A program made the position numbers and the translations under genes. From assembly GCA_041664465.1 (NCBI GenBank), contig JBAYKP010000003.1, forward strand, positions 19,405-83,404: a stretch of 64,000 nucleotides of DNA. The letters are read 5' to 3'. This document shows positions 7,185 to 57,945 of the stretch, piece after piece. Below the pieces are notes generated by a model that ran no database searches, had not been told where the DNA came from, and saw only the letters and a list, made by a program, of their open reading frames with translations. Position 1 is the first letter of the stretch, and every line of letters begins with the position of its first letter. This DNA comes from Minisyncoccota bacterium (lineage in GTDB: Bacteria > Patescibacteriota > Minisyncoccia > Phycocordibacterales > UBA9973).

Positions 7185-7222
7185 ATATTATCACATCTTT
7201 TGCTCTTTGTCCGTAGAATTTT

Positions 7223-7262
7223 TCCTCCCCTGTGAAGGGGAGGTGGCTCCTAGCCGGAGGGG
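7223..7262. repeat. hairpin repeat family 2, copy A (cctcccctgtgaaggggag gtggct..agcc ggagggg)
   Basis: matches the copies at 14797, 27419 and 62305; intergenic between tyrS and PBP; source of the spurious ORF 7171..7449. Confidence 0.5.
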
Positions 7263-7285
7263 TTTTTGTGTTATGATATATAAGT

Positions 7286-14332: not shown

Positions 14333-14794
14333 ATGGATCAAGAACTTGTAAAATCAATCATAGAAAATATTTTTACACATACAGCTTGTACTATTTCCAA
14401 GTGCGAACTATCCCTTGAAGATGGGATGCTTTGGTGTATGATTGAAACTCCAGATTCAAGATTTATGATTGGACGTGAAGGAGAGACCCTCAGATCCCTC
14501 AATCATTTAGTCCGTAAGATTGCTGAGAAGGCAAGTGGCACAGAAGAAATTTCTAATATCTTTGTGGATGTGAATGGATATCAAAAGAAAAGATTTGATA
14601 ATCTGAAAAATATTGCTCATATGATGGCCGAGAGAGCCCGCTATTTTAAGAGTAATATCGAGATTGATCCTATGCCTGCCAATGAACGTCGCATTGTTCA
14701 TATGTTCTTAGAGAAGATTCCAGATATTAAAACAGAATCAGAAGGCTATGGACCAGAGAGAAGAGTGGTAATTAAATATATAGGAAACAACTAA
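14333..14794 (+). CDS. khpB: Jag/KhpB R3H-domain RNA-binding protein
   Basis: KH-like fold plus R3H motif (ERRIVHMFL); canonical position after yidC. Confidence 0.75.
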   Translation: MDQELVKSIIENIFTHTACTISKCELSLEDGMLWCMIETPDSRFMIGREGETLRSLNHLVRKIAEKASGTEEISNIFVDVNGYQKKRFDNLKNIAHMMAERARYFKSNIEIDPMPANERRIVHMFLEKIPDIKTESEGYGPERRVVIKYIGNN

Positions 14795-14796
14795 AT

Positions 14797-14838
14797 CTCC
14801 CCCTGCTAAGGGGGAGTGCCTGAAAGGCGAGGGGGTCA
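14797..14838. repeat. hairpin repeat family 2, copy B
   Basis: ctccccctgctaagggggag tgcctgaaaggcga gggggtc; intergenic. Confidence 0.45.
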
Positions 14839-16049: not shown

Positions 16050-17525
16050 TTAACACCCCCAACCATTTGCTGTTAGTTTATTAAAGTTGGCTTCAACTCT
16101 TGGTGCATATATTCTAGTTTGTTGGTATCCAGCATAAGCCGTGCATTGCCAATTTGTTGATCCTGGGCAAGCAGTAGCCTCTTTATTTGCACCAGGTCCC
16201 CCATTATAAGATGCAGCTAAATATTGTATATTTGAGATGTCACATACTGAAGATTTTGCAGAAAGATTACAACCATTTTTTTGGAGTTTGCTGAGATAAC
16301 TTGCACCAGCCATTATGTTTGTTTGTGCATCCATAGGGTCAGATCCTACACCTTGTTCCGCAAAGGTTTTTGGCATAAGCTGTATGAGTCCTTGAGCTCC
16401 TGATGGGCTTGTTAGATTATTTACCCCTCCAGACTCAGCATACATAAAAGATTTTAAGAGAGTACAACTCAATCCGTATTTTGAAGCAGCAGTTTTCAAC
16501 TGAGCATCGTATGTAGTTATATTTTTATTGGCATTTGGATTTCCAGGAGTTCCAATTGTAACTCCATAATAACCTCCGCCAGATGTTTGGGTTATTTCTA
16601 CACTTGCGGTATCTATTACCAACCCCTCTTTCCCTGTCAGTGCTGGATTGATAGTATTGAGTAATGCCCAAGCGCCGAGAGCTATGATTAATCCAAGGAC
16701 AGCTGAGAACATTTTCTTTTTCGCTTCAGTTTTGCCGAAAACAGATTCATCCCCCATATATGAGACTCCAGCTATTATAAGCATTATGACTGCAAGAGCA
16801 GCACATATCCCAATAGCAAGCTTGAAAATTATATTTAGATATTTCCCGATATCATTTGATATACAGTTTGTATCTTTACCACTTGAATCCATACAAGTAA
16901 TGTTGCCGATAGGAGCCAGCATTTTATAAATACTTTTATTCTCCGCAACATTTATTTTAGGAGTGACATCCACAGCAGGATCTTCTGCTAGTGCTATGGT
17001 TCCACTTGCATATATTTCATTATAATTACCATTAAAATCAGGATTAGCATTATAAATTTTCCAATGGAAAGGGACATTATTCTCTTTTGTTATTGAGAAA
17101 AGAAGCGCCATTGGGATTCTTACTGTTTTTTCTATTGTTTTCCCTTTATTTTCATCAGCGTTCATTTTTGTAACATACATCACCCCGTTGTCACTATTAG
17201 CTATAATCTCTGCTGGTGCTTCCGATAAACCAGATTTAAGAACAGTCCCACGAAGATCAAGCCGCTTACTATTAATATCAGCCTCAAAATACGAGTTAGC
17301 GTTTATGTCATTTGGTGACCCCATTGTTGTTGGGTTGTCTGCAACCTTAAAAGTAAAAGTAAAATCGTAATATTGACCACCAAAATTATTTACATCATAT
17401 TTATAAAGGTTAAGTGGAACATTTTTATTAATTAAAGAAATATTACCCGCCAATACCGAAGCAGGCATAATGAGATTTGTAAATAAAATAAACGATATTA
17501 AAATAGAAGAAAATATTTTTTTCAT
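16050..17525 (-). CDS. lytic transglycosylase (SLT domain) with N-terminal extracellular domain and central TM segment; VirB1/PrgK/TcpG-like cell-wall hydrolase
   Basis: C-terminal SLT catalytic motifs AESGG...GLIQLMP...YNGGPG; signal peptide; adjacent to VirB4. Confidence 0.7.
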   Translation of the reverse strand: MKKIFSSILISFILFTNLIMPASVLAGNISLINKNVPLNLYKYDVNNFGGQYYDFTFTFKVADNPTTMGSPNDINANSYFEADINSKRLDLRGTVLKSGLSEAPAEIIANSDNGVMYVTKMNADENKGKTIEKTVRIPMALLFSITKENNVPFHWKIYNANPDFNGNYNEIYASGTIALAEDPAVDVTPKINVAENKSIYKMLAPIGNITCMDSSGKDTNCISNDIGKYLNIIFKLAIGICAALAVIMLIIAGVSYMGDESVFGKTEAKKKMFSAVLGLIIALGAWALLNTINPALTGKEGLVIDTASVEITQTSGGGYYGVTIGTPGNPNANKNITTYDAQLKTAASKYGLSCTLLKSFMYAESGGVNNLTSPSGAQGLIQLMPKTFAEQGVGSDPMDAQTNIMAGASYLSKLQKNGCNLSAKSSVCDISNIQYLAASYNGGPGANKEATACPGSTNWQCTAYAGYQQTRIYAPRVEANFNKLTANGWGC

Positions 17526-17526
17526 A

Positions 17527-18531
17527 TTATAGTGTTAATTTTAATTGGCCAGTAACTTTTTGGAATAATTTACTTATATTCTCAAATGTGACATTTATAT
17601 CTGCATATCCCCCACGAGCTGTAGGTCTTATAGTTAGCTCTGTCTTTTTAAAAGGTGTAGAGATAGGATCTCCGTTTATATTCCAATTATAATTGAAATT
17701 ATCTTCACTACCTTTTATTGCAAGGAAATATGGCACAGCTACCATCGTCATCTCATCCCCTGTGAAAATTGTATCACTATTTAAAGCATTATTATATAGA
17801 GTCCCTTCGGTTGGCGATTTCTTATAAAAAATTACCTTCGGAGAATATGAAGAAACTGTTGTTGTTCTTTCAGCAGTATAATTCTCACCGACAGAAGAAG
17901 CTACTACTGTTATCATATTTTCTGTATCAAACAAATCATTACTGAAAACAAAAGAATTCTTATTATACCCAGAAGCATCAGTCACAGCGTTGTCATTATT
18001 TTTCCACGAGTAAGAAACATTTCCACCGCCAGACTTTATGGTATCTGTATTGGGGATTGCTACGGCTTTTATAATACCACCCCGAGAAGGGAGAGCCTTA
18101 CCTTTATAAAAGGGTGGCACGTATCCATCGAGAGATTCCCAGAGTAATTCAATCTCAGAAGGCGAGATAGAGACACTCTTCGTAATAGTACTCATAGCCC
18201 CAACAGGCTTTATCATAATATCAAAATTGGTTGTAGTATTAGGGCCTAAGGCTTTAAAAGAATAATCAGTCTTCCCTATTCCAGACAGCACAACCTTGGA
18301 GTTCATTTGCCAAGATATCGTAGCTTTATTCAAGTCGGTCGCGTAACTTGATATACTTATAGAGACATCCTCATATGGTTGTGGATTTTTAGGAGAGATT
18401 GTCACAATAATCTCATCTTCTTGGGTATTTATTTGCATTTCAGCAAAAGAAAAAGAATGAATAGACAATAGACTAACCATAAAAATCACCCCAATTAAAA
18501 ATTTCATTTTTATAAGCTTCACTTTATACAT
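17527..18531 (-). CDS. secreted hypothetical protein
   Basis: N-terminal signal peptide, beta-rich; between the VirB4 and SLT genes. Confidence 0.5.
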   Translation of the reverse strand: MYKVKLIKMKFLIGVIFMVSLLSIHSFSFAEMQINTQEDEIIVTISPKNPQPYEDVSISISSYATDLNKATISWQMNSKVVLSGIGKTDYSFKALGPNTTTNFDIMIKPVGAMSTITKSVSISPSEIELLWESLDGYVPPFYKGKALPSRGGIIKAVAIPNTDTIKSGGGNVSYSWKNNDNAVTDASGYNKNSFVFSNDLFDTENMITVVASSVGENYTAERTTTVSSYSPKVIFYKKSPTEGTLYNNALNSDTIFTGDEMTMVAVPYFLAIKGSEDNFNYNWNINGDPISTPFKKTELTIRPTARGGYADINVTFENISKLFQKVTGQLKLTL

Positions 18532-18560
18532 TATATAATATTTACCAAGTTATTGCATTT

Positions 18561-18654
18561 TCTCCCCTCCTTACCAAGGAGGGGACCAAGGAGAGGTTCT
18601 TAATTAATTAGGAACCTCTCCCTCCCCTCTCCTTAGTAAGGAGAGGAGCTAATT
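18561..18654. repeat. GC-rich palindromic repeat family 1, copy 2
   Basis: tctcccctccttaccaaggagggga...cttaattaattaggaacctctccc...ctccttagtaaggagagg; overlaps the VirB4 stop codon. Confidence 0.6.
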
Positions 18655-20478
18655 ACCACCCGACACAGCCAGATCATCCTTTGCTTTCTTAATAGCAAGG
18701 ATTTGAGATGGATCAGATGTGATAATTTGGTCTTCTGTATATGAAGCGATTGTCTTGATGGCTACGTGCTTGAGTCCAGCAAAGAATATTCCTTCTCCGA
18801 CATTGGCTTCGAGAAGTAGATACTTTTCTTCATCAGTAAGACTGAAAGTCTTCTGGAGGACATCAATAGTCGCTGGGGATTGCTTTAATAGAAGCTGAAT
18901 AGAAGAGTTCGTCACGATAGGCACGCCATAAGGGCTCTTCATAAAGTCCCCTACATCTTGGGTAATAGTAGCCAGACCTAGATAATATTTACGCCCTCTC
19001 TTAGCAATAGAATAAAGGAATGAAGCGGTATCTTCTGATTTCATCATCCACCAAGCTTCATCCACGACGAGTAATCGCTTCTTAAGATTTTTACGGACAG
19101 CATTCCAGATGAAGTGAGTGACTATATACATAGCCACAGGCTTGAGTTCATCTTCCATATCTCGCACAGAAAAGACGACGAATTTACGATTGATATCCAC
19201 ATTGGATGGTCTATTGATAAATGATGCCCAAGAACCGTGCGTATACTTCGCGATACGCTGTATTAGAGAGTTACTTCCCTCCATTCCAGCGAGGACAACT
19301 TCAAAGTCTGAAAGAAGTGGAGGTTCTATATTTGCAAAATTGGAAGATGCCGTTATGTCTTTCAGGGCATAAGTCTCTGTTATAGCTCGGTCTATGATGG
19401 AATCCTCTTCTGGCGTAAGTCCTCCGAGCATTATTCGGAATAATCCTACGAGGTTTATGGTATTGGAGCGGAGGACGTCGGCGGCTGTCTCATCCGGTCG
19501 TGGTATTGGTAGATCAAATGGGTTGATATGGTGGTCAGAGGAGAGGGCGATATTGAAATATCTACCACCTATGGCTTCTGCCAAGTATTCATATTCACGT
19601 TCAGGGTCTATGACAATAACTTCTGCATCAAACATAAGTGTACGGATAATTTCAAGCTTCGTGGCATAAGATTTACCAGCTCCAGCTGTGGCGAAAGTTA
19701 TAGAGTTGTAGTTTGGAAGAGAAAATCTGTCAAAAATGATAAGACTAGAGTTGTGCCTGTTCACTCCATAGAGAATTCCCTTATCTGAAGTCAAATCAAA
19801 TGAGACAAAAGGGAAAATACTTGAGAGAGGCTCTGTATCAAGCTTCTGATGAATTCCTAAAATATCAGTCCCCAGAGGAATAACACTTTTGAAGCCTTCA
19901 ACTTGTTGGAATAATGCTGGCTTCAAGTAGACAAGCTTAGAATCTAGAAGAGACTTCACCTCACTCTCTATTTTGAACAAATCATTTTCATTATCAGCAT
20001 AGACAGTAATATAAAGCCCCACATCAAACATTTTATTTTGAGCTTGCATTAGACTGTCACGCAAATTCTCGAGATCTTGGTAGGCAGTATCTAGCATCGG
20101 GTCGCGGACCAAACCTTTGGACTCACGGACAGATATTTGGCTTTGAACTTCCGCCACTTTCTTTTGGAAAGATCTTAGTATGTCGGCAGTTTCTATTGGG
20201 TGTATGAAGATAGAGACGTCAAAAATTTTGTCCAAGTTCACAATTGGTGAGAACCAATTATCCGTAAGATATCTAGGATAAGAAATGACGAAGAAAGTCC
20301 TCGCTATCTTATCTCCTAAATTTATAGACTTGGGGGTTATCTGAAGTGCCGAAGGTGCGATTACATCTTGGAGCTCAAGAGTGGCCGCTTTGTATATTTC
20401 GGTTGGCAAAACAGGCATAACGGTATTCGTCTGTTTTGATTTATTGCCCCCACTAAATATTGATGAAAATATTCCCAT
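18649..20478 (-). CDS. VirB4/TrbE/CagE-family T4SS ATPase, C-terminal part including the ATPase domain
   Basis: Walker A GAGKSY, Walker B hhhVVDEAW, family-typical central and C-terminal motifs. Confidence 0.75.
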   Translation of the reverse strand: MGIFSSIFSGGNKSKQTNTVMPVLPTEIYKAATLELQDVIAPSALQITPKSINLGDKIARTFFVISYPRYLTDNWFSPIVNLDKIFDVSIFIHPIETADILRSFQKKVAEVQSQISVRESKGLVRDPMLDTAYQDLENLRDSLMQAQNKMFDVGLYITVYADNENDLFKIESEVKSLLDSKLVYLKPALFQQVEGFKSVIPLGTDILGIHQKLDTEPLSSIFPFVSFDLTSDKGILYGVNRHNSSLIIFDRFSLPNYNSITFATAGAGKSYATKLEIIRTLMFDAEVIVIDPEREYEYLAEAIGGRYFNIALSSDHHINPFDLPIPRPDETAADVLRSNTINLVGLFRIMLGGLTPEEDSIIDRAITETYALKDITASSNFANIEPPLLSDFEVVLAGMEGSNSLIQRIAKYTHGSWASFINRPSNVDINRKFVVFSVRDMEDELKPVAMYIVTHFIWNAVRKNLKKRLLVVDEAWWMMKSEDTASFLYSIAKRGRKYYLGLATITQDVGDFMKSPYGVPIVTNSSIQLLLKQSPATIDVLQKTFSLTDEEKYLLLEANVGEGIFFAGLKHVAIKTIASYTEDQIITSDPSQILAIKKAKDDLAVSGGN

Positions 20479-20485
20479 AATAATT

Positions 20486-21139
20486 TTATTGTAATTTAAT
20501 TCCTTGACTAATATCCCCAGGATTGAATGTCTTATAGAAAAGTTCTACGACTTCGTCCGTTTTAAGCTGACTACTTCGTATCCCTATCCCACTTAATCCA
20601 TTAATAATGACGTTCGTTCTTTGTTCTAGCTGGCTACGCTTCTCCTCGAAAGATGCTAGATCCATAGCCTTCTTGGTATCCTCTACTTGTTTCTTGGGGG
20701 CTCCGCCACCAATCAGACTATCTACTATGCCATTCCCAGATTTTATAATACTTGAACTATATGGCACAACGACGAAGAAAGTTTTCGTCATTATGTTCAC
20801 TTCATCTGTGAAAGATCGAATGAAGTCTATATATTCTTTCGTCTGTATTTTAAGGAGGGGTTCGGTTTGCTCTTTCAAGCGATTCTCAAGCATTAAGAGA
20901 TATGGCCTTATATTCAAGCGTCTGGACTGGATTACAATTTGAGTGGAGAAATCTAGACCATTTAAGAATGATTGGAATTGATTAATAATGGCGACTTGTT
21001 CATCGGAAGACTTAAGAGAGAGGTTGATGGAGGAAGCGATAAGGATAGCACGAAGACCACCATCCTTAAGTACAATGATGCCATTGCGGACCTCCTTTAT
21101 AGGAACGAACTCTTGTGCTGCTTTTGAATCAATTGCCAT
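20486..21139 (-). CDS. VirB4-family N-terminal domain, separate ORF ending 7 nt upstream of the ATPase ORF in a different frame
   Basis: pattern IKEVRNGIIVLKDGGLRAILIASSINLSLKSSDEQVAIINQFQSFLN typical of conjugative VirB4 N-termini; the two ORFs total 826 aa. Confidence 0.5.
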   Translation of the reverse strand: MAIDSKAAQEFVPIKEVRNGIIVLKDGGLRAILIASSINLSLKSSDEQVAIINQFQSFLNGLDFSTQIVIQSRRLNIRPYLLMLENRLKEQTEPLLKIQTKEYIDFIRSFTDEVNIMTKTFFVVVPYSSSIIKSGNGIVDSLIGGGAPKKQVEDTKKAMDLASFEEKRSQLEQRTNVIINGLSGIGIRSSQLKTDEVVELFYKTFNPGDISQGIKLQ

Positions 21140-21163
21140 AATTTATACTAATATTATATCACA

Positions 21164-21574
21164 CTATTTATCGTTTCTATCTTGAACGTCCAAACTCCAA
21201 GATAAATCCTTCAATTTACTTTCTGAAAGCATTGGTACATTGGATATGGTAGTGGGCATTTGCACATCTTCATCTTGTATATCCCCTTTCTTTACAAGTC
21301 TTTGCTTCCACAAGTAAAGTTTGCTTGAGATTAAGTAATTAAAAGAAGCTTCTAAATAATATATGAAAGGCTTGCCATTTATTTTCACAAAGACGAGGCA
21401 GACAGTAAGCCCAGCGACGGGTAAGATAAGGAAGATGCCTATCCAAAGTGGCAAGATTTTGTATATGACGAAAATTATTCCTCCTCCACCAATCAAAAAG
21501 GCAAATTGGCGAAAGGTAAAAGGGCCAAAAATTTTATCTTCTATGTCTATAAATTGTGGTACTTTGAATTGCAT
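21164..21574 (-). CDS. small two-TM membrane protein, PrgI/VirB3-like
   Basis: 136 aa, two TM helices, immediately upstream of VirB4. Confidence 0.4.
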   Translation of the reverse strand: MQFKVPQFIDIEDKIFGPFTFRQFAFLIGGGGIIFVIYKILPLWIGIFLILPVAGLTVCLVFVKINGKPFIYYLEASFNYLISSKLYLWKQRLVKKGDIQDEDVQMPTTISNVPMLSESKLKDLSWSLDVQDRNDK

Positions 21575-21576
21575 AT

Positions 21577-22602
21577 CTATATTTCCTCATGATATGGATC
21601 GTGAGGTTTTGATTGAGGTTCTCCGCTCATCTTTGGTAGAGAATAGTCACTTACAGAAGCTTTGCTAGTTGTATTACCGAATAGTTTATTGGTGATGATG
21701 TTGGGAGTAGGTGTGGATTTTTCATCATCTGAAATTATTTCTATGCCGTGTTCTTTATACATATCAGTTTCTTTGGTATTCGTATTTGCAATTATATTTT
21801 CTATTTCACTTTGAGAAGACCCCTTCTGCCCTTCAGGCATCTCCCCCTTAGCAGGGGGCGAAGAAAATACAGGTGATGGTATCGGAACAACTTCTTCTTT
21901 CTTTTTCGCATAAGGCGGAAGTGGCACCTCATCATTTGATTTTTCATTCTTAACTACTTTTATCCCTTCTTCTTCTACATTTTTTATATTTTTAAATATA
22001 TTTTCATTTATTTCCCCCACCATTTCTTGTATTTTATCATTCCCCAAGTCTATCTTGGACCTTATGGCATCTTCATATTGATTACCCGCTATGGTATTCA
22101 GTATTACCTTTACTGTGATGTCTTCTAATATTCCCATTTGCTCCACATTAATCTTATACTTTCTAGCTACATCATATAATTTTTCTTTCCAATTAGAATA
22201 AGCAATTGATTCTTGGATGTCTTTCGGTAAGCTTGCAAAACGAAGATCAAGATTTTTATTATTTAAAGAGATTGCGTTGGATTGGAAAGTTTCAGTAAGC
22301 TCTCCTTTTATTGTTTTAAGGATATTTTCATCTATTTCTATTAATATTTTTTCTGTAACTTCTTTTTCTAATTCCAAATCTTTCCTTAAAATATTTTGAT
22401 ATTCTTCAATATGAATAATACCCAGTAATACCAAGGTGGTTTCTGTGGCTAAAATTTCTATCCGATTTTCTTTTAAACCATATTTAATACCAAGTTCTTT
22501 AAGTTTTTCCATCCAGAGCATAGAAGAGAAAACACTCTGAGCCTCTTTCGGGAGCTTCTGGTAGTATTCTGCTATTTTTTGTTGTAATTGTATTTGATCC
22601 AT
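21577..22602 (-). CDS. hypothetical protein; contains an in-frame partial copy of repeat family 2 (plus 21841-21860, encoding SPPAKGE)
   Basis: no recognisable family; inside the T4SS-like operon. Confidence 0.45.
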   Translation of the reverse strand: MDQIQLQQKIAEYYQKLPKEAQSVFSSMLWMEKLKELGIKYGLKENRIEILATETTLVLLGIIHIEEYQNILRKDLELEKEVTEKILIEIDENILKTIKGELTETFQSNAISLNNKNLDLRFASLPKDIQESIAYSNWKEKLYDVARKYKINVEQMGILEDITVKVILNTIAGNQYEDAIRSKIDLGNDKIQEMVGEINENIFKNIKNVEEEGIKVVKNEKSNDEVPLPPYAKKKEEVVPIPSPVFSSPPAKGEMPEGQKGSSQSEIENIIANTNTKETDMYKEHGIEIISDDEKSTPTPNIITNKLFGNTTSKASVSDYSLPKMSGEPQSKPHDPYHEEI

Positions 22603-22611
22603 AGTTATTTT

Positions 22612-25374
22612 TTAGTGATGAGCCCCACCTCCTCCATGTGCATCTCCTCCTGTGCTTGTTGGTGCTTTTGGAACTTCTATTTTTACACCCTTCAGTGCTT
22701 CTGTAATTGTTGCTCCTATATCTTTTATCGCATCTCCTTGCCCTTGTCCGTGGTTAACCCCAGAGCTCTTTAATCCAGCACGAACACCAAGAGCTACTCC
22801 AGCAATCATAGCAGTTGGAATTTTATTAAAGAATCCGTCTCTCTTATCTGTATTAACTTGAGAAATATTTCGAACATCATAACTAGCCTTATTTGATCTA
22901 GCGAAGCCTCTTGTAAGCATTGAAACATTTTGTTTAGATTCTTCACGTAAGTGTTTGAATAATCCTTCAAGTTGAGCATCTGTTGTAACTTTTACTGCGG
23001 CATTTAATTTGATATCCAATTCATCTTCCATTTTCTTCTGTACTTCACCCTTTAACTCACCATTTTTATCCAAATTCTTTGAATCTTTTTTCAACTCAGC
23101 AGCCACTTCTTCTCGGTTTTTTGATTTGAACGCCTTTTCTCCTACAAAACTACGGCCCTTTTCATCTACAATTCTTGCTTCGTTTTTACCAGTAGCATCA
23201 AGACCTTTTCTTGCATTTGTTTCAACATCAGATCTCTTTGTCTTATTAAAGGTTGTTTTTAGCTTGTTTTCATCTTCACCAGAAATATTACTATCTTCTA
23301 ATATATTACCATTAGCATCTACAAGTCCAGCAGCTTTCTTCGTCTCGTCTATTTCATGACGAGCATGGTCAATCTTATTCGTATCTCTTTGTGATTTATT
23401 TAGCTGAGCACCCAAACGACTAAATACGTTAGTTTTAGGAACAGCATTTGCCTTTTTATGATCTTCCCATGTTGGTTTAGCCCCTCTTGTTTTAGGATCT
23501 GCAGCTTTCCACTTCTCAAGGTTATCATTGAATTTAATTTTTTCTGTTTTTATTTTATCAAGATTTTCTGGAGTAGCTCCTTCCATTCGTGACATTTTAG
23601 CTATTCCTGCACCAACGACTCTTCTTCCTAATAATGCAGTTCCAAGTGCCGCTCCACCAAGAAGCATTCCACCAGTTGCGGCTATTCCTCCTGTAATTTG
23701 TTTACCTATCTCCCCAGACATATCTGAAGCGATACCTTTTGCTTTTATAAGGAAAATCATTATAAAAATAAAAGGTATGGTTATTCCTAAAATAAAATCT
23801 AAACCACTTTTACCATCGGTAGAGAAAAGACCTAGCCCAGTATCAAGGAATTTAATTATTATATATAAAAAGAAAATAAATACAGGGGCAAGGAATGCCA
23901 TCTTCAAAGTATCTGGCCACCAATTCTTCCATCCAATCATTTTTATACTAGACATTTCAGGAAGTATATAAGTGAAGAATGCAAGTGGGGCTAGGATCAT
24001 AGCGAGCCAGAGTCCGATGACTCGAGCCACGAACATTAATCCAACAGAAATAAATACAATAATCCCAACAATATTAATGGCGGATGTTAGTAAAATAACC
24101 AAGATAAAAGTGCTAGCAGAGATTCCATTTTTTTGGGTTCCATCTGATCCAATATTTCCTTTTGCTGTTATATTACCGACGTCTGATGCATTTATAATTA
24201 ATTTTTGTGGATTAATTTTTGAAACAAGCGCTTCTGATAATTTTATTTCACCGGTAGATCCAGGTGCATTTTGTATTACCCCATCAATCTTGGGGCCTAC
24301 TTTTATAGCGTCTGAATTGTAGAAAACTCTAGCAGTAATATTGGATGCATCAATAATCACTTGAGTAGCGAAAAGAGAAAAGTTTATAAATAGTCCAATG
24401 ATAACTATATTTATAATAGTTTCTTTGGTTTTCACACTATGCAAGTTTAGTATTGTGCCTATCGCTATATAAAGCATTATGAATATGAAAAATAAATTAC
24501 AGAAATCACGCACAAGCCCCCAGCCTTGCACTACGAAAGTAGACCGATACGAAGAATCTTGGACAGAGTATGAAAAAGTTTTATCAAACAGTGTTCCAGA
24601 TAAAGCAAATAAAACAGAAGTTGGTTTGAAGACTGCCCAATAAAGAAGACTACCAAAACAGCCACCAATATTACTCCAAAAATTCCATGGACATTGTGGT
24701 AGTATAGAATCAAGATAATTTTGATTAACATTTACATTTTTATCAAGAGTCACCACCTGTGGGTTATCAGCGCTGTTTGTTGTTATTGCGGGAGATTCAC
24801 CTATGGATGTTTCATTTGATTCAGTACCGGGATCTGCAAGTTTAGCACCAATTGCAATACCGACTGCCATTCCTAAAGGATTTAAAGTAAAAATTCCTGC
24901 TACAACACCACCAGCAAATCCACCAGCAGCACTAACGATAGTGGAGGCCCAAAGAGGAGTTGTTTGCGATGCAACAGTTTTTAAAACATATGTTGTGCTA
25001 GGATTTAAGTTTGGAAAATTAAAGCTACCAGTTCTTACTACATAAGCTTCTTTCTCCATAGTAGTATTATCTCTTACTGCATCTTCAAGTTTAATATTCT
25101 GTACGAAAAGTGCGACATTATTTGTGTCTAAAAGATAAACAATTGCCGCAGCCTTACTTATATTAAAATCACCACTTTCAAAGACAACGCGTACGGTCCC
25201 AGATATTGTGGTGTTTGTCTTTTGTGGAGATGTTGTTACTTTTATACTATCAGCCGCACTGGCTTCATTCTTCCCAATCTCCACCTTATTTTTATTCCAC
25301 CCCACACTAAACGGAGCGAAGAGGTTCGCAGAGATTATGAGTGATATTAAGATGTATGATATGATTCTCTTCAT
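22612..25374 (-). CDS. large polytopic membrane protein, VirB6/TrbL-like candidate: signal peptide, roughly 300-aa exodomain, multi-TM core, long Lys/Glu-rich tail ending in Gly/His
   Basis: topology read from the translation; head of the operon containing VirB3/VirB4. Confidence 0.45.
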   Translation of the reverse strand: MKRIISYILISLIISANLFAPFSVGWNKNKVEIGKNEASAADSIKVTTSPQKTNTTISGTVRVVFESGDFNISKAAAIVYLLDTNNVALFVQNIKLEDAVRDNTTMEKEAYVVRTGSFNFPNLNPSTTYVLKTVASQTTPLWASTIVSAAGGFAGGVVAGIFTLNPLGMAVGIAIGAKLADPGTESNETSIGESPAITTNSADNPQVVTLDKNVNVNQNYLDSILPQCPWNFWSNIGGCFGSLLYWAVFKPTSVLFALSGTLFDKTFSYSVQDSSYRSTFVVQGWGLVRDFCNLFFIFIMLYIAIGTILNLHSVKTKETIINIVIIGLFINFSLFATQVIIDASNITARVFYNSDAIKVGPKIDGVIQNAPGSTGEIKLSEALVSKINPQKLIINASDVGNITAKGNIGSDGTQKNGISASTFILVILLTSAINIVGIIVFISVGLMFVARVIGLWLAMILAPLAFFTYILPEMSSIKMIGWKNWWPDTLKMAFLAPVFIFFLYIIIKFLDTGLGLFSTDGKSGLDFILGITIPFIFIMIFLIKAKGIASDMSGEIGKQITGGIAATGGMLLGGAALGTALLGRRVVGAGIAKMSRMEGATPENLDKIKTEKIKFNDNLEKWKAADPKTRGAKPTWEDHKKANAVPKTNVFSRLGAQLNKSQRDTNKIDHARHEIDETKKAAGLVDANGNILEDSNISGEDENKLKTTFNKTKRSDVETNARKGLDATGKNEARIVDEKGRSFVGEKAFKSKNREEVAAELKKDSKNLDKNGELKGEVQKKMEDELDIKLNAAVKVTTDAQLEGLFKHLREESKQNVSMLTRGFARSNKASYDVRNISQVNTDKRDGFFNKIPTAMIAGVALGVRAGLKSSGVNHGQGQGDAIKDIGATITEALKGVKIEVPKAPTSTGGDAHGGGGAHH

Positions 25375-25472: not shown

Positions 25473-26171
25473 TTAATTACTATTATTATCAAGATTTAAT
25501 TTTAGTAAGAAAATAGTCTCCTTTTTAAGTTTTTCACGGGCCCAATCCTTTTGAGACGAAGAAAGCAATTCCCCAAGACCGTCTAAGATATGCTTATTAT
25601 CCATATTTTCAAGCATCTTTATACACTTGATCAAAGTATCTTTAAAAGATATACCAGATCTATTTTCCACTATCTTTTTATTTATCTCCCAGTTGTTTTT
25701 ATAAAAGAAATAAACATCAAATATGTCTCTGCTTGTTTTGCCAATTCTTTCATACATAGCCATAAGTTTATGGGCAAACATATCTTCTTTGACCATTACA
25801 AGCATTGAGATGCCGAGCAATGTTTTAATCTCATATTTAGAGCCAAATTGTCTACGGCTCACTTCTACTTTTATTTGCTGAGCTCCTTTCTTATATGAAA
25901 TAATATTAAGCAAATTGAAATGCTTTATCCTAGATTCTGTGATAGTCCCATAGCTTTCAGTAATTTTCTGAATCTTATTAAAGACCTCTTCTTCCTTAGT
26001 ATCATCCAATAAATCAAAATCAAGATCCACTGAATTACGATCTAAGCCGTAGAATAAAAGAGCGGCAGTGCCACCTTTGAATCCAAGATATGGAGAGATA
26101 GAGGTGTCAGAATAAATATCTTTCAAGATTTGAAGTAATATATTTTTGTGTTTTGAATAGTCTAATGTCAT
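25473..26171 (-). CDS. AbiEii/AbiGii-family nucleotidyltransferase (type IV toxin-antitoxin or abortive-infection toxin)
   Basis: FKGGTAALLFYGLDRNSVDLDFDL matches the family GGTAL...R.S.DLDF signature. Confidence 0.55.
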   Translation of the reverse strand: MTLDYSKHKNILLQILKDIYSDTSISPYLGFKGGTAALLFYGLDRNSVDLDFDLLDDTKEEEVFNKIQKITESYGTITESRIKHFNLLNIISYKKGAQQIKVEVSRRQFGSKYEIKTLLGISMLVMVKEDMFAHKLMAMYERIGKTSRDIFDVYFFYKNNWEINKKIVENRSGISFKDTLIKCIKMLENMDNKHILDGLGELLSSSQKDWAREKLKKETIFLLKLNLDNNSN

Positions 26172-26191
26172 ATTTTTTTATTTTCTTCTTT

Positions 26192-26839
26192 TTATTTTTT
26201 AAAATCATCATAATACTTCTTCACGGTTTTTGCCATTCTCTTATTATGATAGATTGGCAAGATTTCAAATACTTTTTCCCAATCTAATGGGTTTGTGTTA
26301 TCAATATAATATTTTTTACTTACATATATACGGTCTAAGTAAGCACGCTCTTTTGTTGCTCTGGCATAACCGTCACTATTTTCAATTCCTAAAGTATTAC
26401 TTAATACATAATCTTTCATTCTAATAAATTCTATTTTTTGTCCATCAACTTCCATTTCTCTTTTTATGTATGAAGCCACAAAAATATTTCCATAATATTG
26501 GAAAGTCATACCAGATGAACCCAAGACAGTTTCAAAGCTGATATATGAAGGAGTATTTATTCTAGTGGCTAATTCAAAGCGGTTATAGTTTTTATCTTTA
26601 ACATATAAACCACGATGAACTCTAATCAACTTCTTTGCTTTAACGTAGTAATTCAATCTCACACGCACAGGTCCGTTAGCCTTTTCTCCCCACATTAAAG
26701 CAACATCTTTATTGGAAAAGACGGTTTTACTAGACCTCAATAAAATATCTAAATATTCCCCTTTTTGAATTTTTTTATCCATATATCTACTGGAACTTAG
26801 TTTAAACCTAACATCCAGTCCATATACTAGCATAAACAA
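26192..26839 (-). CDS. AbiEi-family antitoxin/transcriptional regulator candidate
   Basis: directly upstream of AbiEii on the same strand; LIRVHRGLYV matches the AbiEi motif; probable start at the internal MDKK. Confidence 0.45.
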   Translation of the reverse strand: MFMLVYGLDVRFKLSSSRYMDKKIQKGEYLDILLRSSKTVFSNKDVALMWGEKANGPVRVRLNYYVKAKKLIRVHRGLYVKDKNYNRFELATRINTPSYISFETVLGSSGMTFQYYGNIFVASYIKREMEVDGQKIEFIRMKDYVLSNTLGIENSDGYARATKERAYLDRIYVSKKYYIDNTNPLDWEKVFEILPIYHNKRMAKTVKKYYDDFKK

Positions 26840-26986
26840 TATATAAATACAACCCTTTTAATCTCCTCCTTATAGAGTGGCTGTAAGCCGGGATGGACTG
26901 ACATTTGACACATTTTACATATCTGATATACTGTACTTACATTCGGGATTTTCCCGCGACCCTACTGGTAAAACAGTGGGGAATAT

Positions 26987-27400
26987 TTATTTATACAGAC
27001 TATTAAACCCTATTCTAACCTTTTTAAAATCTTCACCATCTAATGTTCCAAGTTTTGAGAATAGTCTACGATAATCCACAACCCTTACTTGATGTAAACA
27101 AGCAAACATTTCTATGTTTTTATGAATAAAACCCACATACCAAGAACCCCTTTTGTCTTTCGTTGTAGTAGGAATAATAAGATAGAAACTGTGTGATAGT
27201 TTCTTATAAATAATTCCAGGTCTTGTAAATATTTCACTTTTACCATTTATCTCTGATCCAACATTTTCTCCTAGACTTATCCACCAAATATCTCCCTCTG
27301 ATACAAAAGGAGGCCGCGATTCTTTATTGTGCAACTTCTCTTTCAACCCTATCCATTCTAGAAATTTTTTAATTATATTATGTTTTTCTTTTTCCAACAT
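26987..27400 (-). CDS. MazF/PemK-like endoribonuclease toxin with about 40-aa N-terminal extension
   Basis: GDIWWISLGENVGSEI...RPGII, IIPTTTK and HQVRVVDYRRL align with MazF GDLIWVDF...RPAVVL, CVPCTTQ and ADQVKSIAWRAR. Confidence 0.5.
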   Translation of the reverse strand: MLEKEKHNIIKKFLEWIGLKEKLHNKESRPPFVSEGDIWWISLGENVGSEINGKSEIFTRPGIIYKKLSHSFYLIIPTTTKDKRGSWYVGFIHKNIEMFACLHQVRVVDYRRLFSKLGTLDGEDFKKVRIGFNSLYK

Positions 27401-27418
27401 ATTGTTTTTTGTATTTTT

Positions 27419-27543
27419 GCTCCCCTGCTAAGGGGTGAGCTTGGGATTATGGGACCCAAGCGCAAGACCGTGAACGTTTTGTAACCAGAATGTGAACGGT
27501 GTACTGCTCCTGTAAGGAGGTGCCCGTAGGGCGAGGGGGTCTC
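27419..27543. repeat. hairpin repeat family 2, copy C, expanded with about 85 nt of additional GC-rich hairpins
   Basis: gctcccctgctaagggg ... gcttgggattatgggacccaagc ... tgcccgtagggcgagggggtc; intergenic. Confidence 0.45.
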
Positions 27544-27555
27544 TTAATTATAATC

Positions 27556-33533: not shown

Positions 33534-34433
33534 CTAATTTTTTATAGAAAGATTGGATATTTCTATCCATTTTTCAAATTTGATATCCTCAGCTCTTGCC
33601 TTAGGATTTATATCTAATTTTTCAAATATTTCATCTATTTTATTTATATAAGGAAGTCCGACTTCCTTAATTTGTATGTTTGGAAGTCCGACTTCCAAAT
33701 TTTTACGGAGGACTTTTCTTTTATGAGCAAAGCCTGCTTTGATAAGTTGGAAGAATGAATCTTCTTCATTTTTATTTTTGAAAAATTTGTTGGAAATATC
33801 TCCTATGTGAATAATTGCCGAGTCCACCTTAGGAGCTGGGGAGAAGAATCTTTTATGAACTTTCATTATGTATTTTGGTGTGCTGAAAGCTTTCACGGAA
33901 AGAGAAAGAATACTTTCCTTCTCATCTCTTGCTACAATTCGCTCGGCTACCTCTTTCTGGACCAAGAGAGTCATACTGACAGGCTTTGGTTCTTCACTTA
34001 AAAATTTCCTAAGTATTAAACCGGTGATGTTGTAAGGAATGTTGGCGACTATCTTATAGGTATTAATTCCTCCCCTCCTTACTAAGGAGGGGACTGAGGG
34101 GAGGTTCTTAATTAATTCACCCCTCCCTAGCCCTCCCCTTAGTAAGGGGAGGGGATTAAAATTTAAAATATCTTCATTTAATAAAATTAGTTTTCCAGAT
34201 TTTATTTCTTCTGTGAATTTTTCATTAAGTATTTCTATCAAGTCGCGGTCTTTCTCAACCGCAATTACTTTCCTCGCTCTCTCTAAAAGTTTCTCTGTCA
34301 GTGCCCCCTTCCCTGGGCCAATTTCAACAACTATATCTTTATCATTCACACCACTCATCTCGCACATCTTGAAAAGCGCCTCTTTAGACTTCAAGAAATT
34401 CTGCCCCATACTTTTCTTTGCTTGATGAATCAT
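33534..34433 (-). CDS. rsmA: 16S rRNA (adenine1518/1519-N6) dimethyltransferase carrying an in-frame repeat insertion of about 32 aa
   Basis: MGQNFL, VEIGPGKGALT SAM motif, NIPYNI; the insert [32 protein letters not shown] is encoded by repeat family 1 copy 3. Confidence 0.8.
   Translation of the reverse strand: MIHQAKKSMGQNFLKSKEALFKMCEMSGVNDKDIVVEIGPGKGALTEKLLERARKVIAVEKDRDLIEILNEKFTEEIKSGKLILLNEDILNFNPLPLLRGGLGRGELIKNLPSVPSLVRRGGINTYKIVANIPYNITGLILRKFLSEEPKPVSMTLLVQKEVAERIVARDEKESILSLSVKAFSTPKYIMKVHKRFFSPAPKVDSAIIHIGDISNKFFKNKNEEDSFFQLIKAGFAHKRKVLRKNLEVGLPNIQIKEVGLPYINKIDEIFEKLDINPKARAEDIKFEKWIEISNLSIKN
34065..34157. repeat. GC-rich palindromic repeat family 1, copy 3, in frame inside rsmA
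   Basis: aattcctcccctccttactaaggaggggactgaggggaggttcttaattaatt...ccctccccttagtaaggggagggg. Confidence 0.6.
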
Positions 34434-34434
34434 A

Positions 34435-36372
34435 TTATAAGTATACTACCTTCTCTCCACCTTTTGAATAACTCTGCCTGAATTCTGTCAGGTGAACTGG
34501 GATGTCGTAGATGAATTCACTCGGAGTATTTACTTGTTTCATTCCGAAAATTGTACGCAATGTTGTATAAGTAAGGAAAAGTTTTTTCTCTGCTCTTGTG
34601 AGTGCCACATAGAAAAGTCTTCTCTCTTCCTCTTTATCTTCTTTCGTTCCCTGACCTGTTCTTGCATGTGGAAATAAATCTTGCTCAAGCCCCGTGACGA
34701 AGACATATTTGAATTCTAGCCCTTTCGATGCATGCACTGTCATCAATCTGACTCCGCCAGTTTTAGCTTTATTTATAAGGCTATCTTGGTCACTTGAAAG
34801 TGAAGCATCTTCTAAAAGTTTTTCTATTCCATTCTCCATTGTGTCATATTTTATGGCGAGAGTTACAAGCTCTTTCATATTTTCTAATCGTTCCATTTCT
34901 TCATTTGTACCATGCGAGAGTTCCTCTTCAAGTCCCGACTTCTCTATTATATATTTTATTATTTCAGATGGTTTATGCGTATCAATATACTCGTGAATAT
35001 TTTCTAATAATTCATAGAATTTATTTATTTTAATTTGCATTCCCGCTGGTAGTTCTGCGAACTGACCCGCGAAAAGTTTCGTGAGTGTCACCTTCCCTAC
35101 TCCACGAGCCGGAGTATTTATAATTCTTTTTATATCTGTTAGGCTTTCTTTATTCAAGCTTGCTTTAATATATGCGATGACATCTTTGATTTCTTTTCTC
35201 TCGAAAAATTTTACCCCAAGGACTTGGTAAGGAATTTGCCGAGAGAGCATTGCCTCTTCTAAGACGCGGGATTGAAAGTTCGCACGGTACAAGACTGCTA
35301 TATTCTCTGGTTTATTTTCTTTTAGGAGTTCATCTATTTCTTCCGCTACAAAATTTGCTTCTGATGTTTCATCATAAGCTTCGCAGACCACTATCTGCTC
35401 GCCATCTACATTTTTAGTAAATAAAGTTTTCGGTACTCTATACTGATTCTTCTCTATCACACTATTGGCAGCTTCTATTATCTTTCCTGTGGAGCGGTAA
35501 TTCTGCTCAAGCATCACAATCTTGGCATTCGGATAATCTTTTTCAAAACGAATCATGTTTTTAATGTTCGCTCCTCTCCATGAGTACACACATTGATCTT
35601 GATCCCCAACAATACAAATATTTTCATCTTTACTTACTAGAAGCTTCGTCATTTCATACTGCACTTCATTTGTATCTTGATACTCATCTATATGCACATA
35701 CTTCCACTTCTCTTGATATTTATTTTTAACCTCTGGAAACTTCCGCAAAATCATTACAGATTCCAAAAGTAAATCATCAAAATCAAGCCCTTTTTCATTT
35801 TTAAGTCTGGCTTCGTATCCACCCCAGACGAGGGCTACAATACTTTGCATGCTACTTTTCACCTCTCCTCTATAATTAGGAAGTGTAATAAAGTCACCTT
35901 TGGCTTTGGAAATAATACTTTTAATTTTCCTTGGCTCGTGTTGCTTCGGGTCTATATCGTGCTCTTTCATCACATCTTTGATAATAGAGATAGCGTCACT
36001 CTCGTCTATTATAGAGAAGTGCTTGGTAAGGCCTATCAGGTGGGCATTCTCTTTTATAATATGTACTCCAAGAGAATGAAAAGTAGAGACAAATGGAGTC
36101 CCCGCGCCAGAGCTTCGCTCTGGCGCACTTATCCCATGCCTTTTGTCTTCCAGTAGCATCATCACTCTATCTCGCATTTCCTTGGCAGCCTTATTTGTAA
36201 AGGTTACTGCCAGAATAGAAGAAGGATTCACTCCTTGATGTATCAAATGAATTATCCTGTGTGTTATCGTCTTCGTCTTCCCCGCCCCCGCCCCTGCTAC
36301 TATCAAAAGAGGCCCATCTGTATACAAGACTGCCTCTTTCTGTTTATCATTCAATTGCTCCAAATATTGCAT
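34435..36372 (-). CDS. uvrD: ATP-dependent DNA helicase UvrD/PcrA family
   Basis: GAGAGKTKT Walker A, DEYQDTN, QNYRST helicase motifs. Confidence 0.85.
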   Translation of the reverse strand: MQYLEQLNDKQKEAVLYTDGPLLIVAGAGAGKTKTITHRIIHLIHQGVNPSSILAVTFTNKAAKEMRDRVMMLLEDKRHGISAPERSSGAGTPFVSTFHSLGVHIIKENAHLIGLTKHFSIIDESDAISIIKDVMKEHDIDPKQHEPRKIKSIISKAKGDFITLPNYRGEVKSSMQSIVALVWGGYEARLKNEKGLDFDDLLLESVMILRKFPEVKNKYQEKWKYVHIDEYQDTNEVQYEMTKLLVSKDENICIVGDQDQCVYSWRGANIKNMIRFEKDYPNAKIVMLEQNYRSTGKIIEAANSVIEKNQYRVPKTLFTKNVDGEQIVVCEAYDETSEANFVAEEIDELLKENKPENIAVLYRANFQSRVLEEAMLSRQIPYQVLGVKFFERKEIKDVIAYIKASLNKESLTDIKRIINTPARGVGKVTLTKLFAGQFAELPAGMQIKINKFYELLENIHEYIDTHKPSEIIKYIIEKSGLEEELSHGTNEEMERLENMKELVTLAIKYDTMENGIEKLLEDASLSSDQDSLINKAKTGGVRLMTVHASKGLEFKYVFVTGLEQDLFPHARTGQGTKEDKEEERRLFYVALTRAEKKLFLTYTTLRTIFGMKQVNTPSEFIYDIPVHLTEFRQSYSKGGEKVVYL

Positions 36373-36395
36373 TCCCTTATTGTAGCATTTTATTT
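36305..36395. repeat. 91-bp direct repeat, copy 1 (native uvrD 5' end plus upstream region)
   Basis: near-identical to 37642-37732 (2 mismatches). Confidence 0.6.
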
Positions 36396-36406
36396 AATTT
36401 AATTCT

Positions 36407-37537
36407 TTAGTTATATTCTTCTAGATTCTCTAAATATTTTTCTGCATTTTTTATTTTTGCACCAGATTTAGAAACCCTCTCTGTTTGTAGATTATATACT
36501 ACTTGCGTACTTTCCACTTTGTATTTTTCTCTGAAATATTCCAAGGTTTTTGATATACTACTATCAGAAACTTTTGCTTCAATGATTTCTATTAAATTAT
36601 TTTCACTATCTGATAAGGCAAAGTCCACCTCTTTCTTTTCTTTGGTCTTTAAAAATCCGAGAGAATATGAGGCTCCATCTCTATCATTTTTTAATTTTAT
36701 ATGTTTATACAAAGCAAGTGCTACGAAGTTTTCGAATTTTGCACCAACATCATTTATCAAAGCATAATCAAAGAAATAAATTTTAGGTTCTTTTAAGATT
36801 GAACGAGAAATTTTATGAGTGTATGGTTTTATTATAAATATAATATATATTGCTTCCAATATCTCAATATATTTTTTTACCGTAATAGAAGAAATCCCTA
36901 TATCTCCTGCGATATTACTATAACTTATAGGTGAGCCTACTTTATTTTTCAAAGATTGATATACAAGACGAATAGCATTCACTTTATCTATATCTTGAAA
37001 TTCTAAAACATCTTGTCCCAGAAGACTCTCAGTATATAAACTACGCCAACGGTTTACATCTTCATTGTTGCTGGCTAGTAATGGCTCGGGGAACCCGCTT
37101 CTTTCCATTAGTAAGCTTGCAACATTCTCTATATCACTTCCTTTTAATTCACTCAGAGTAAATGGGAATAGATGGTGGACATAGAATCGTCCAGCCAGCG
37201 AATCCCCCACTTTTTTAAATGCATCCATTCTAGCACTTCCAGTCACTAGTATGTGTACTGATGAAGATTTTGTATCATATACTCCCTTTAAATAATTTTT
37301 CCATTTTGGCATTTTATGGATCTCATCAAACACAATTAGATCAACATCAGGGAGCCAAGCTTCTTTTCGAATTATTTCTCGATGGTCACTGTTATCATAA
37401 TTCAAATAAACAGGATTTTTATATTCCTTCATTATCTCTTTGGCCAGCCAAGTCTTCCCCACTTGTCGTGGTCCCACAATAAAGACCATTTTCTTTTGTA
37501 AATCGGAGAGTATTTTGTTGTATATTTTCCTTTTCAT
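36407..37537 (-). CDS. AAA+ ATPase with C-terminal DUF4143-like domain
   Basis: Walker A GPRQVGKT, Walker B LIVFDEIH; flanked by the 91-bp direct repeats. Confidence 0.7.
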   Translation of the reverse strand: MKRKIYNKILSDLQKKMVFIVGPRQVGKTWLAKEIMKEYKNPVYLNYDNSDHREIIRKEAWLPDVDLIVFDEIHKMPKWKNYLKGVYDTKSSSVHILVTGSARMDAFKKVGDSLAGRFYVHHLFPFTLSELKGSDIENVASLLMERSGFPEPLLASNNEDVNRWRSLYTESLLGQDVLEFQDIDKVNAIRLVYQSLKNKVGSPISYSNIAGDIGISSITVKKYIEILEAIYIIFIIKPYTHKISRSILKEPKIYFFDYALINDVGAKFENFVALALYKHIKLKNDRDGASYSLGFLKTKEKKEVDFALSDSENNLIEIIEAKVSDSSISKTLEYFREKYKVESTQVVYNLQTERVSKSGAKIKNAEKYLENLEEYN

Positions 37538-37641: not shown

Positions 37642-37732
37642 AAAAGAGGCCCATCTGTATACAAGACTGCCTCTTTCTGTTTATCATTCAATTGCTCCAA
37701 ATATTGCATTCTCCTATTGTAGCATTTTATTT
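37642..37732. repeat. 91-bp direct repeat, copy 2 (duplicate of the uvrD 5' end)
   Basis: near-identical to 36305-36395; overlaps the stop of ORF 37727..38035. Confidence 0.6.
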
Positions 37733-57910: not shown

Positions 57911-57945
57911 ATAGTAGCATAAAATCTTGGTAATTGCAAGGGGGT

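Follow-up and report, generated by a model that had tools for sequence, protein, structure and literature searches.

What keeps a MazF-type endoribonuclease in check when no gene for a protein antitoxin lies beside it? The question is raised by a locus in the genome of a Minisyncoccota bacterium (NCBI GenBank assembly GCA_041664465.1; Patescibacteriota, Minisyncoccia, Phycocordibacterales, UBA9973), from which a stretch of 64,000 nucleotides was analyzed (contig JBAYKP010000003.1, positions 19,405 to 83,404 of the forward strand). This stretch is referred to as the window, and all positions are counted from its first letter. Between positions 25473 and 27555, the window holds an AbiEi-AbiEii gene pair and a gene for a MazF-like protein. 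An earlier reading of the same letters without database searches (the sequence-only reading) had described these genes, together with an expanded GC-rich hairpin element, as one defence islet, and had suggested that the antitoxin of the MazF-like protein is either fused to it or missing. In the present work, we combined the window sequence, homologous genome loci and metagenome contigs, using comparisons of sequences and of a structure model. On this evidence, the region is two independent modules, the AbiE pair on the one hand and the MazF-like gene with a small RNA on the other. The latter would be a toxin-antitoxin system with an RNA antitoxin and, if borne out, a new architecture among such systems.

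The MazF-like protein

The gene in question is the following.

26987-27400, minus strand: MazF/PemK-family endoribonuclease-like protein, 137 aa (Pfam, structure model, profile alignments)

The protein matches the Pfam family PemK_toxin (PF02452) over residues 35-131 with 33.5 bits, the cut-off being 23.1, and a profile of 40 homologues finds solved MazF/EndoA structures with an E-value of about 1e-5. An AlphaFold2 model (mean pLDDT 83.7) has its best Foldseek matches in MazF from S. aureus, B. subtilis, and E. coli (E=1e-6, with target-relative TM-scores of 0.7-0.79). The PemK_toxin match and the MazF fold of the model thus confirm the family membership that had been proposed from conserved sequence blocks. 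In an hhalign alignment with E. coli MazF (96% probability), R60-P61 corresponds to R29-P30, T79 to T52, E50 to E24, and Q104 to Q77, and the arginine and threonine positions, which the sequence-only reading had singled out for checking, do match those of the E. coli enzyme. Across the alignment of 40 sequences, R60 does not vary, and T79 is retained in at least 90%. Because the catalytic residues are conserved across this alignment, the gene is not a decaying remnant.

Two hallmarks distinguish the family from classical MazF, namely an N-terminal helix (residues 2-25, core KRFLEWIGLKEKLH), predicted with moderate confidence (pLDDT 65-73), and an insertion of five residues in the S1-S2 loop. 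Both are kept in 40/40 aligned homologues, with a mean column identity of 64%. The N-terminal extension noted earlier is therefore real and conserved family-wide, but its length is about 25-34 residues and not the 40 first estimated. The family is large, with 802 matches in a 90%-clustered database and at least 1,438 clusters at E<=1e-10 in a 50%-clustered library, where most of the top matches cover the helix. Identity of the protein across phyla is 60-70%. A protein annotated by NCBI in a Candidatus Paceibacterota metagenome-assembled genome is 100% identical to that of the window, in line with an origin in the Patescibacteria.

Absence of a protein antitoxin

GTDB representative genomes were searched with an alignment of homologues, which gave 288 relatives, and the best 80 loci were kept; a search of the same genome collection with the single protein as query gave no match. 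No MazE/PemI gene was found beside any of these 80 loci, and in the window no open reading frame (ORF) conserved as protein was found in either flank of the gene (26840-26986 and 27401-27555). The homologues occur in unrelated contexts, one of them 10 nt after pyrG and another between a lipoprotein gene and a sigma-factor gene, and at homologous loci with differing neighbours no small partner gene is called or conserved. The small ORFs of the flanks were considered as antitoxins and rejected, as the 'peptide' that loci appear to share (YIRDFPA / SRFSRDP) is found in different frames across loci. Since it changes frame from locus to locus, the conservation in the flanks is at the nucleotide level and non-coding. 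The statement of the sequence-only reading that a MazE/PemI-like ORF is absent thus applies to the window flanks and to the homologous loci alike. Its suggestion to look for an antitoxin ORF at 26840-26986 led to the right place, although what is located there is a small RNA gene and not a small ORF. As this gene is conserved and lies on the plus strand of that interval, the idea of a missing antitoxin was not upheld.

A convergent small RNA gene

The elements identified downstream of the MazF-like gene are listed below.

26905-26932, plus strand: promoter of the small RNA, with -35 box TTGACA at 26905-26910, a 16-nt spacer with TG (extended -10) and -10 box TATACT at 26927-26932 (promoter scan)
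26939-26993, plus strand: small RNA gene of about 50-55 nt, proposed RNA antitoxin (covariance model, folding, terminator scan)
Parts of this RNA: 5' tail ACAUUC; hairpin 1, 26944-26956; spacer CGA, 26957-26959; hairpin 2, 26960-26981; tail GAAUAUUUAUUUA, forming an intrinsic terminator

When the 3' flanks of homologues from three unrelated contexts were aligned, a conserved block of about 60 nt became apparent immediately past the stop codon. In the direction antisense to the gene, it consists of a -35 box TTGAC(A), 16-18 nt, a -10 box TAnnnT, about 7 nt, (U)ACAUUCGG, hairpin 1, CGCGRC, the GC-rich hairpin 2, and AAUAUUU(U), in this order. In the window, the small RNA gene lies directly 3' of the MazF-like gene and is convergent with it, the U-tract of its terminator overlapping the toxin stop codon (26987-26989). 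A generic scan scored the plus strand at 26905-26932 as the best promoter of the 2.4-kb region (11/12) and placed a plus-strand terminator at 26960-26981 plus AATATTTATT; transcription would thus start near 26939. The promoter is near-invariant over 81 loci (-35 T78 T80 G76; -10 T79 A78 ... T79), and in 69/81 the -10 box is 21-22 nt from the spacer between the hairpins. A combined promoter score of at least 10/12 was reached by 69% of the loci, compared with 1.5% of shuffled controls.

For the predicted transcript (about 26939-26993), a fold with two hairpins was obtained that has an energy of -20.3 kcal/mol (z=-4.0), and the sole match of a covariance model in the window, on the plus strand, is at 26922-26995 (76 bits, E=4.5e-13). 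Among 72 sequences, paired cells amount to 94.4%, as against 80.4% in shuffles, none of the 500 shuffles being as high. Compensatory changes were seen in 11 of the 13 pairs, with both hairpins covarying (slid controls, 42-61%), and RNAalifold recovered the same two helices. The helices contain about 32 G-U cells and about 8 A-C cells, and this large excess of the former assigns the structure to the strand opposite the toxin gene. In Rfam, only tRNAs reached the gathering threshold in the window, and nothing was found at 26939-26993 even at E<=10.

Several variants of this arrangement were observed at homologous loci. At five Peribacteria loci, a further hairpin (GGUACUG-AAAA-GUAC) is present at the 5' side of the RNA, after the -10 box and before the UUUUCGGG core. 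At five loci, including L080 (3848-4282), which also has the extra hairpin, the MazF-like ORF lacks its usual stop codon and reads into the small RNA gene, so that the RNA is fully antisense to coding sequence. As to the toxin genes themselves, a TAnnnT box whose end is 4-9 nt from the ATG was found upstream of 50/77 (background, 12%), while a Shine-Dalgarno-like motif was seen in 1/77. The position of the box just before the ATG and the near lack of Shine-Dalgarno motifs suggest that the toxin mRNAs are leaderless. Copies of the Peribacteria clade (14 loci) have a common motif, AATTCAGGTTTTTGTCAGGAC, with direct TCAGG repeats, located about 40-70 nt upstream of the mazF-like ATG and followed by a TATAAT box; an operator function is possible for it, as is that of a promoter element particular to the clade.

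Linkage and distribution of the RNA and the toxin gene

In the best 80 of the 288 loci, all 83 matches of the covariance model are on the strand opposite the gene, and one RNA is found directly 3' of every main-family gene. A search of metagenomes with a 23-nt pattern of the RNA gave 111 matches, many of them on contigs from the Hainich aquifer and comparable sites; six are at contig ends, leaving 105 that could be assessed. A convergent gene is present 21-72 nt away in 87 of these. The other 18 are orphan RNAs, where the promoter and the RNA are retained and the toxin gene is deleted to its last codons. The RNA is thus sometimes found without the toxin, but an intact toxin never without the RNA, which is the asymmetry expected of an antitoxin.

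The pairing extends to distant members of the family. Among 11 divergent paralogues (59-95 bits, compared with more than 140 for the main family), ten have their own convergent promoter and an RNA of two or three hairpins; these RNAs are subfamily-specific in sequence, often GGCUUCGGCC. One divergent paralogue is located on a viral contig beside a large serine recombinase. The module also occurs in multiple copies, being present on five or more contigs in some genomes, a metagenome-assembled genome (MAG) among them. At one homologous locus (L005, 1921-3634), four MazF-like/small RNA modules of two subfamilies stand in tandem, with duplicated small RNA promoter sequences.

The module was further seen in contigs with GC-rich flanks binned as Methylocystis, Hyphomicrobium, and other Alphaproteobacteria, and in one contig binned as Methanosarcinales (six loci in all). 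These copies are the result of either horizontal transfer or mis-binning. In the contigs of the Methylocystis and Hyphomicrobium MAGs, the same RNA is kept despite the GC-rich flanks, which argues that gene and RNA move as a unit.

Selection on the RNA and co-evolution with the protein

Silent substitutions in the toxin gene have reached saturation, the pairwise identity at four-fold degenerate sites being 0.27 (a value based on just three sites). The unpaired columns of the RNA (5' tail, loop 1 and spacer), in contrast, have a mean identity of 0.81, four of them being invariant. Such a constraint on unpaired bases is not expected of a purely cis-acting antisense RNA, since this needs no conserved sequence. 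One unpaired base was found to vary together with the protein.

26959, plus strand: spacer nucleotide, A here, co-varying with protein residue 114, Phe here (contingency counts, tree)

The R of CGCGRC, which is A26959 in the window, tracks residue 114 of the protein (F114 in the window). In the GTDB set, a spacer G is accompanied by Ser114 in 46/46 cases and a spacer A by Tyr, His, Trp or Phe in 22/25, and in the metagenome set the figures are 57/57 for G with Ser114 and 12/12 for A with a residue other than Ser. Taking both sets together, G goes with Ser in 103/103 cases and A with non-Ser in 36/37. Parsimony on a neighbour-joining tree of 130 distinct proteins, built with column 114 excluded, gives 12 changes in the RNA and 11 in the protein, of which 11 fall on the same branches out of 258. 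In an all-against-all scan of 40 RNA columns and 89 protein columns (3,560 pairs), two pairs passed Bonferroni correction. The top pair is the spacer base and residue 114 (p=6.8e-10), and the second is the hairpin-1 loop and residue 122 (p=1.3e-7), followed by the loop-closing column 41 with residue 116 (p=1.4e-4). The coupling of the spacer with residue 114 is at the protein level, because the second codon positions of Tyr and His (A) and of Trp (G) cannot pair with A. This co-evolution of RNA and protein supports a direct contact between them and is the chief argument for a complex of the two.

Proposed mechanism and alternative explanations

From the anatomy, linkage, structure, selection and co-evolution observed here, we infer that the RNA is transcribed, that the protein is toxic and that the RNA neutralizes it. 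In the model that we favour, with a probability of about 0.6, the small RNA is an antitoxin that holds the MazF-like RNase in an inactive complex, in a manner resembling type III systems. The RNA would be made constitutively from its own strong promoter, fold into two hairpins and bind the MazF-like protein directly. Hairpin 1 and the spacer would contact protein residues 114-122, with the RNase kept inactive as a consequence, and the predicted contact can be stated precisely as a spacer G or A facing Ser or an aromatic residue at position 114. No terminator for the toxin mRNA was found on the gene strand ahead of the RNA gene, so that the small RNA is likely to be antisense to the 3' end of this mRNA as well, which makes a type I-like contribution possible.

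A number of observations weigh against this model. The co-evolution is evidence of an interaction and not of inhibition, and it would be explained equally well if the RNA were a substrate, a cofactor or a stabilizing partner; the count of independent co-changes is in addition approximate, as it comes from a simple neighbour-joining tree of a short protein. No convincing promoter for the MazF-like gene itself was found in the window. There is no tandem-repeat array at the locus, and a ToxI-like antitoxin of this kind was accordingly rejected. Motif counts in the toxin genes show no depletion of ACAUU (z=0.25) and a weak one of UACAU (z=-2.7, one of seven motifs tested), so that the idea of the 5' tail (U)ACAUU as a mimic of the cleavage site gains no support from motif avoidance.

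Another way in which the RNA could act on the toxin is that it is only a cis-encoded antisense RNA to the 3' end of the toxin mRNA, as in type I systems, leading to RNase III cleavage or decay without any binding to the protein. The gene arrangement is compatible with this, as the genes are convergent, the U-tract covers the stop codon, the gene strand has no terminator for the toxin mRNA, and certain variants have a larger overlap with the RNA gene, through the ORF or through a third hairpin; moreover, the leaderless-looking mRNAs would leave the 3' end as the only untranslated region. We nevertheless consider it unlikely, as identity among the unpaired bases is about 81%, with some of them invariant, across phyla in which silent sites are saturated, and as an RNA base 30 nt past the stop codon switches together with an amino acid whose codon lies some 70 nt inside the gene, a co-switch for which the codon logic excludes base pairing as the cause. 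An explanation of similarly low probability accepts the binding but not the toxin-antitoxin relationship, so that protein and RNA would form a ribonucleoprotein in which the RNA is a substrate reserved for the enzyme, a cofactor for its specificity or a regulatory RNA processed or stabilized by the protein. Co-evolution and strict linkage reveal an interaction without giving its sign, and an identity of 60-70% across phyla is unusually high for a toxin. The module is, however, multi-copy and patchy and forms tandem arrays, it appears to have been transferred into Alphaproteobacteria and is found on the viral contig beside a serine recombinase, other defence genes are adjacent to it, and orphan RNAs with deleted protein genes were found while intact protein genes without the RNA were not. 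This multi-copy, mobile pattern with orphan RNAs is typical of selfish toxin-antitoxin modules and not of housekeeping ribonucleoproteins.

The explanations that dispense with an RNA partner altogether appear weaker still. The N-terminal extension could be a fused intramolecular antitoxin, or the antitoxin could have been lost and the gene be an inactive remnant. The extension does exist and is helical by prediction, and fused toxin-antitoxin proteins are known in other families. Yet the helix is conserved throughout a large family, it resembles neither MazE nor AbrB, with no match to MazE or another Pfam family at E<=0.1, and the co-evolving RNA would be left unaccounted for; we therefore regard both versions as very improbable, and the fused antitoxin put forward by the sequence-only reading found no support. 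Least likely is that the conserved element is no RNA gene at all and acts at the DNA level or as a generic signal, for instance as a terminator working in both directions, as the promoter of the following gene or as a site of recombination. From its place between convergent units, hairpin 2 could stop transcription of both, but the promoter faces the toxin gene instead of a downstream gene, transcription from it would stop at the terminator after some 50 nt, the bias towards G-U holds for one strand only and the neighbouring genes vary by locus. Conservation also extends to hairpin 1 and the unpaired bases, for which a terminator has no use.

If the RNA antitoxin model is extended from this locus to the family, it would describe a large clade of 'solo' MazF-family toxins, each controlled by a dedicated convergent small RNA that binds the toxin and overlaps the 3' end of its mRNA. 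For this wider claim we see about even chances. At 50% identity, this clade amounts to at least 1,400 clusters, the majority of them from Candidate Phyla Radiation (CPR)/Patescibacteria.

The AbiE pair and the genomic setting

The second module of the region consists of the following features.

25473-26171, minus strand: AbiEii, nucleotidyltransferase toxin (type IV toxin-antitoxin/abortive infection), 232 aa (Pfam, PADLOC, motif)
26192-26782, minus strand: AbiEi, antitoxin/regulator, the mechanical ORF extending to 26839 (PADLOC, weaker Pfam and NCBIfam matches)
26782-26826, no strand assigned: 22-nt imperfect inverted repeat, 77% complementary, candidate AbiEi operator (repeat search)

AbiEii matches Pfam PF08843 with 56.2 bits (E=6e-15; cut-off 22.5) and, over its full length, the PADLOC AbiEii model (E=1e-77), and the GGTA..DLDFDL motif, GGTAALLFYGLDRNSVDLDFD, is readable in its translation. 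AbiEi is located directly upstream on the same strand, with 20 nt between the genes. It matches the PADLOC AbiEi model with E=9e-52, residues 28-209 covering profile positions 3-183 of 186 and thus the full length, while it remains below curated cut-offs elsewhere (Pfam AbiEi_4, 20.5 bits against 25; NCBIfam TAA_AbiEi, E=1.4e-9 and 37.9 against 150). As the PADLOC alignment begins at residue 28, translation probably starts at the ATG at 26782-26780 (MDKK...). The inverted repeat abuts this start codon. AbiE systems are negatively autoregulated by AbiEi through inverted repeats in the promoter, and by analogy the repeat may be the AbiEi operator.

By sequence, the pair is a standard type IV toxin-antitoxin/abortive-infection pair and a new member of a known family, in agreement with what the sequence-only reading had seen, PF08843 supporting the toxin and PADLOC models both proteins. 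It has in common with AbiE of Streptococcus agalactiae and Lactococcus the operon of two genes with the antitoxin first, the DUF1814 nucleotidyltransferase toxin and the inverted repeat in the promoter, and shows no notable difference from them apart from being a new member in a CPR bacterium.

The AbiEii, AbiEi and MazF-like ORFs are all on the minus strand, with the boundaries given above. The contig of a relative, encoding a MazF-like protein of 83% identity, has the same large neighbours and no AbiE genes. Since the MazF-like gene occurs there without AbiE, the AbiE pair is a separate insertion and not a partner of the MazF-like gene, and the proposal of a single islet has to be abandoned. 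On its upstream, higher-coordinate side the MazF-like gene is flanked by a gene of 646 aa, and on the downstream side lie the gene of a membrane protein of 920 aa (22612-25374) and genes resembling a type IV secretion system (T4SS). No Pfam match was found for the 920-aa protein or for the upstream proteins of 646 aa and 982 aa. The genes at 16050-22602 are of the Gram-positive T4SS-like type and include a T4SS pilin plus SLT, a TraG/VirB4 P-loop ATPase and PrgI. The T4SS-like neighbours are confirmed by these matches, and the accessory-region setting assumed earlier is supported. Farther away, a direct repeat of 91 nt with 98% identity (36305-36395 and 37642-37732, 1.3 kb apart) flanks a gene at 36407-37537.

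GC-rich repeat elements

Two copies of a GC-rich element lie close to the module.

26862-26897, no strand assigned: degenerate copy of the GC-rich two-hairpin intergenic element (repeat search)
27415-27541, no strand assigned: expanded copy of the GC-rich two-hairpin element, between the 646-aa gene and the start of the MazF-like gene (repeat search)

The motif CCCCTGCTAAGGGG, which is the core of the element, occurs 8 times in the window, whereas 0.17 occurrences are expected by chance, and the consensus CCTCCCCTGCTAAGGGGAGG-TGGCTGTAAGCC-GGAGGGGT defines a real repeat family. Copies are located at 7220-7263, 14793-14836, 21844-21857, 26862-26897, 27415-27541, and 62301-62344, all intergenic and GC-rich in an AT-rich genome. 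In the copy at 27415-27541, the two hairpins are separated by an insert of about 82 nt that has hairpins of its own and a GTGAACG direct repeat; this copy folds modestly better than shuffled sequence (z=-2.5). The expansion described in the sequence-only reading is therefore real, but its assignment to the islet is not supported. The upstream regions of homologues share nothing with the element, and Rfam gave no match for it. The expanded copy was rejected as a part of the module, being one of a genome-wide family that is not conserved next to homologues, and the element is treated, from its distribution, as a genome-wide repeat resembling repetitive extragenic palindromic (REP) elements that belongs to neither module.

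A similar motif, GGCTGTAGCC..GGAGGGG, was seen upstream of the gene at one homologous locus (L016). The window also contains a second, longer family of GC-rich hairpin repeats (CCCCTCCTTAcTAAGGAGGGG ... TTAATTAATT) at 2059-2200, 18551-18655, 34059-34152, and 57940-58043, present in both orientations at intergenic sites (families D1-D3 and I1-I6).

Comparison with known toxin-antitoxin systems

We searched the literature on MazF/PemK toxins with RNA antitoxins, on toxin-antitoxin systems of CPR bacteria and on a pemK RNA motif, and found no description of the module. Its components nevertheless resemble those of several known systems. Type II toxins have their textbook example in MazF, for which the protein MazE is the defining antitoxin. 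With the type II systems MazEF, PemIK and Kid-Kis the window protein shares the toxin family, the fold and the catalytic residues. It differs from them by the additional N-terminal helix, the longer S1-S2 loop and the lack of a MazE/PemI neighbour.

With the type III systems ToxIN, CptIN and TenpIN, the module has in common an endoribonuclease toxin and a small structured RNA. The type III antitoxin binds its toxin directly, and co-evolution supports such binding here. ToxN, too, has a Kid/MazF-like fold. The type III antitoxin is, however, an array of tandem repeats, located upstream in the same operon and processed by the toxin, whereas the RNA in the window is a single unit, downstream and convergent, with its own promoter and terminator. 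The toxin of the window also belongs to the Pfam PemK/MazF family, which is otherwise classed as type II.

The type I systems txpA/RatA and bsrG/SR4 of B. subtilis show the same layout, in that a convergent RNA gene, transcribed from a promoter of its own, overlaps with the toxin transcript at the 3' end of the latter. The toxins there are small hydrophobic peptides, and for the antitoxin RNAs neither a conserved sequence nor contact with a protein is required. In the window, by contrast, the toxin is a soluble RNase-fold protein of 137 aa, and the RNA is constrained in sequence and co-evolves with it.

Solo type II toxins, such as the solitary MazF of Myxococcus xanthus, are likewise MazF homologues without an adjacent antitoxin gene. 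For the M. xanthus protein, a transcription factor reportedly serves as the antitoxin. Our module differs from these in that a specific linked RNA candidate was identified. Among other points, Makarova et al. (2009; PMC2701414) reported an excess of solo toxins and suggested small RNA as a possible antitoxin. Should our model be correct, it would give a concrete answer to what neutralizes such orphan type II toxins. Annotation pipelines label these genes as type II toxins without a partner; they would then belong to a widespread RNA-protein module of CPR bacteria, and a MazF clade in which a co-evolving small RNA replaces MazE would blur the classification into types I, II, and III.

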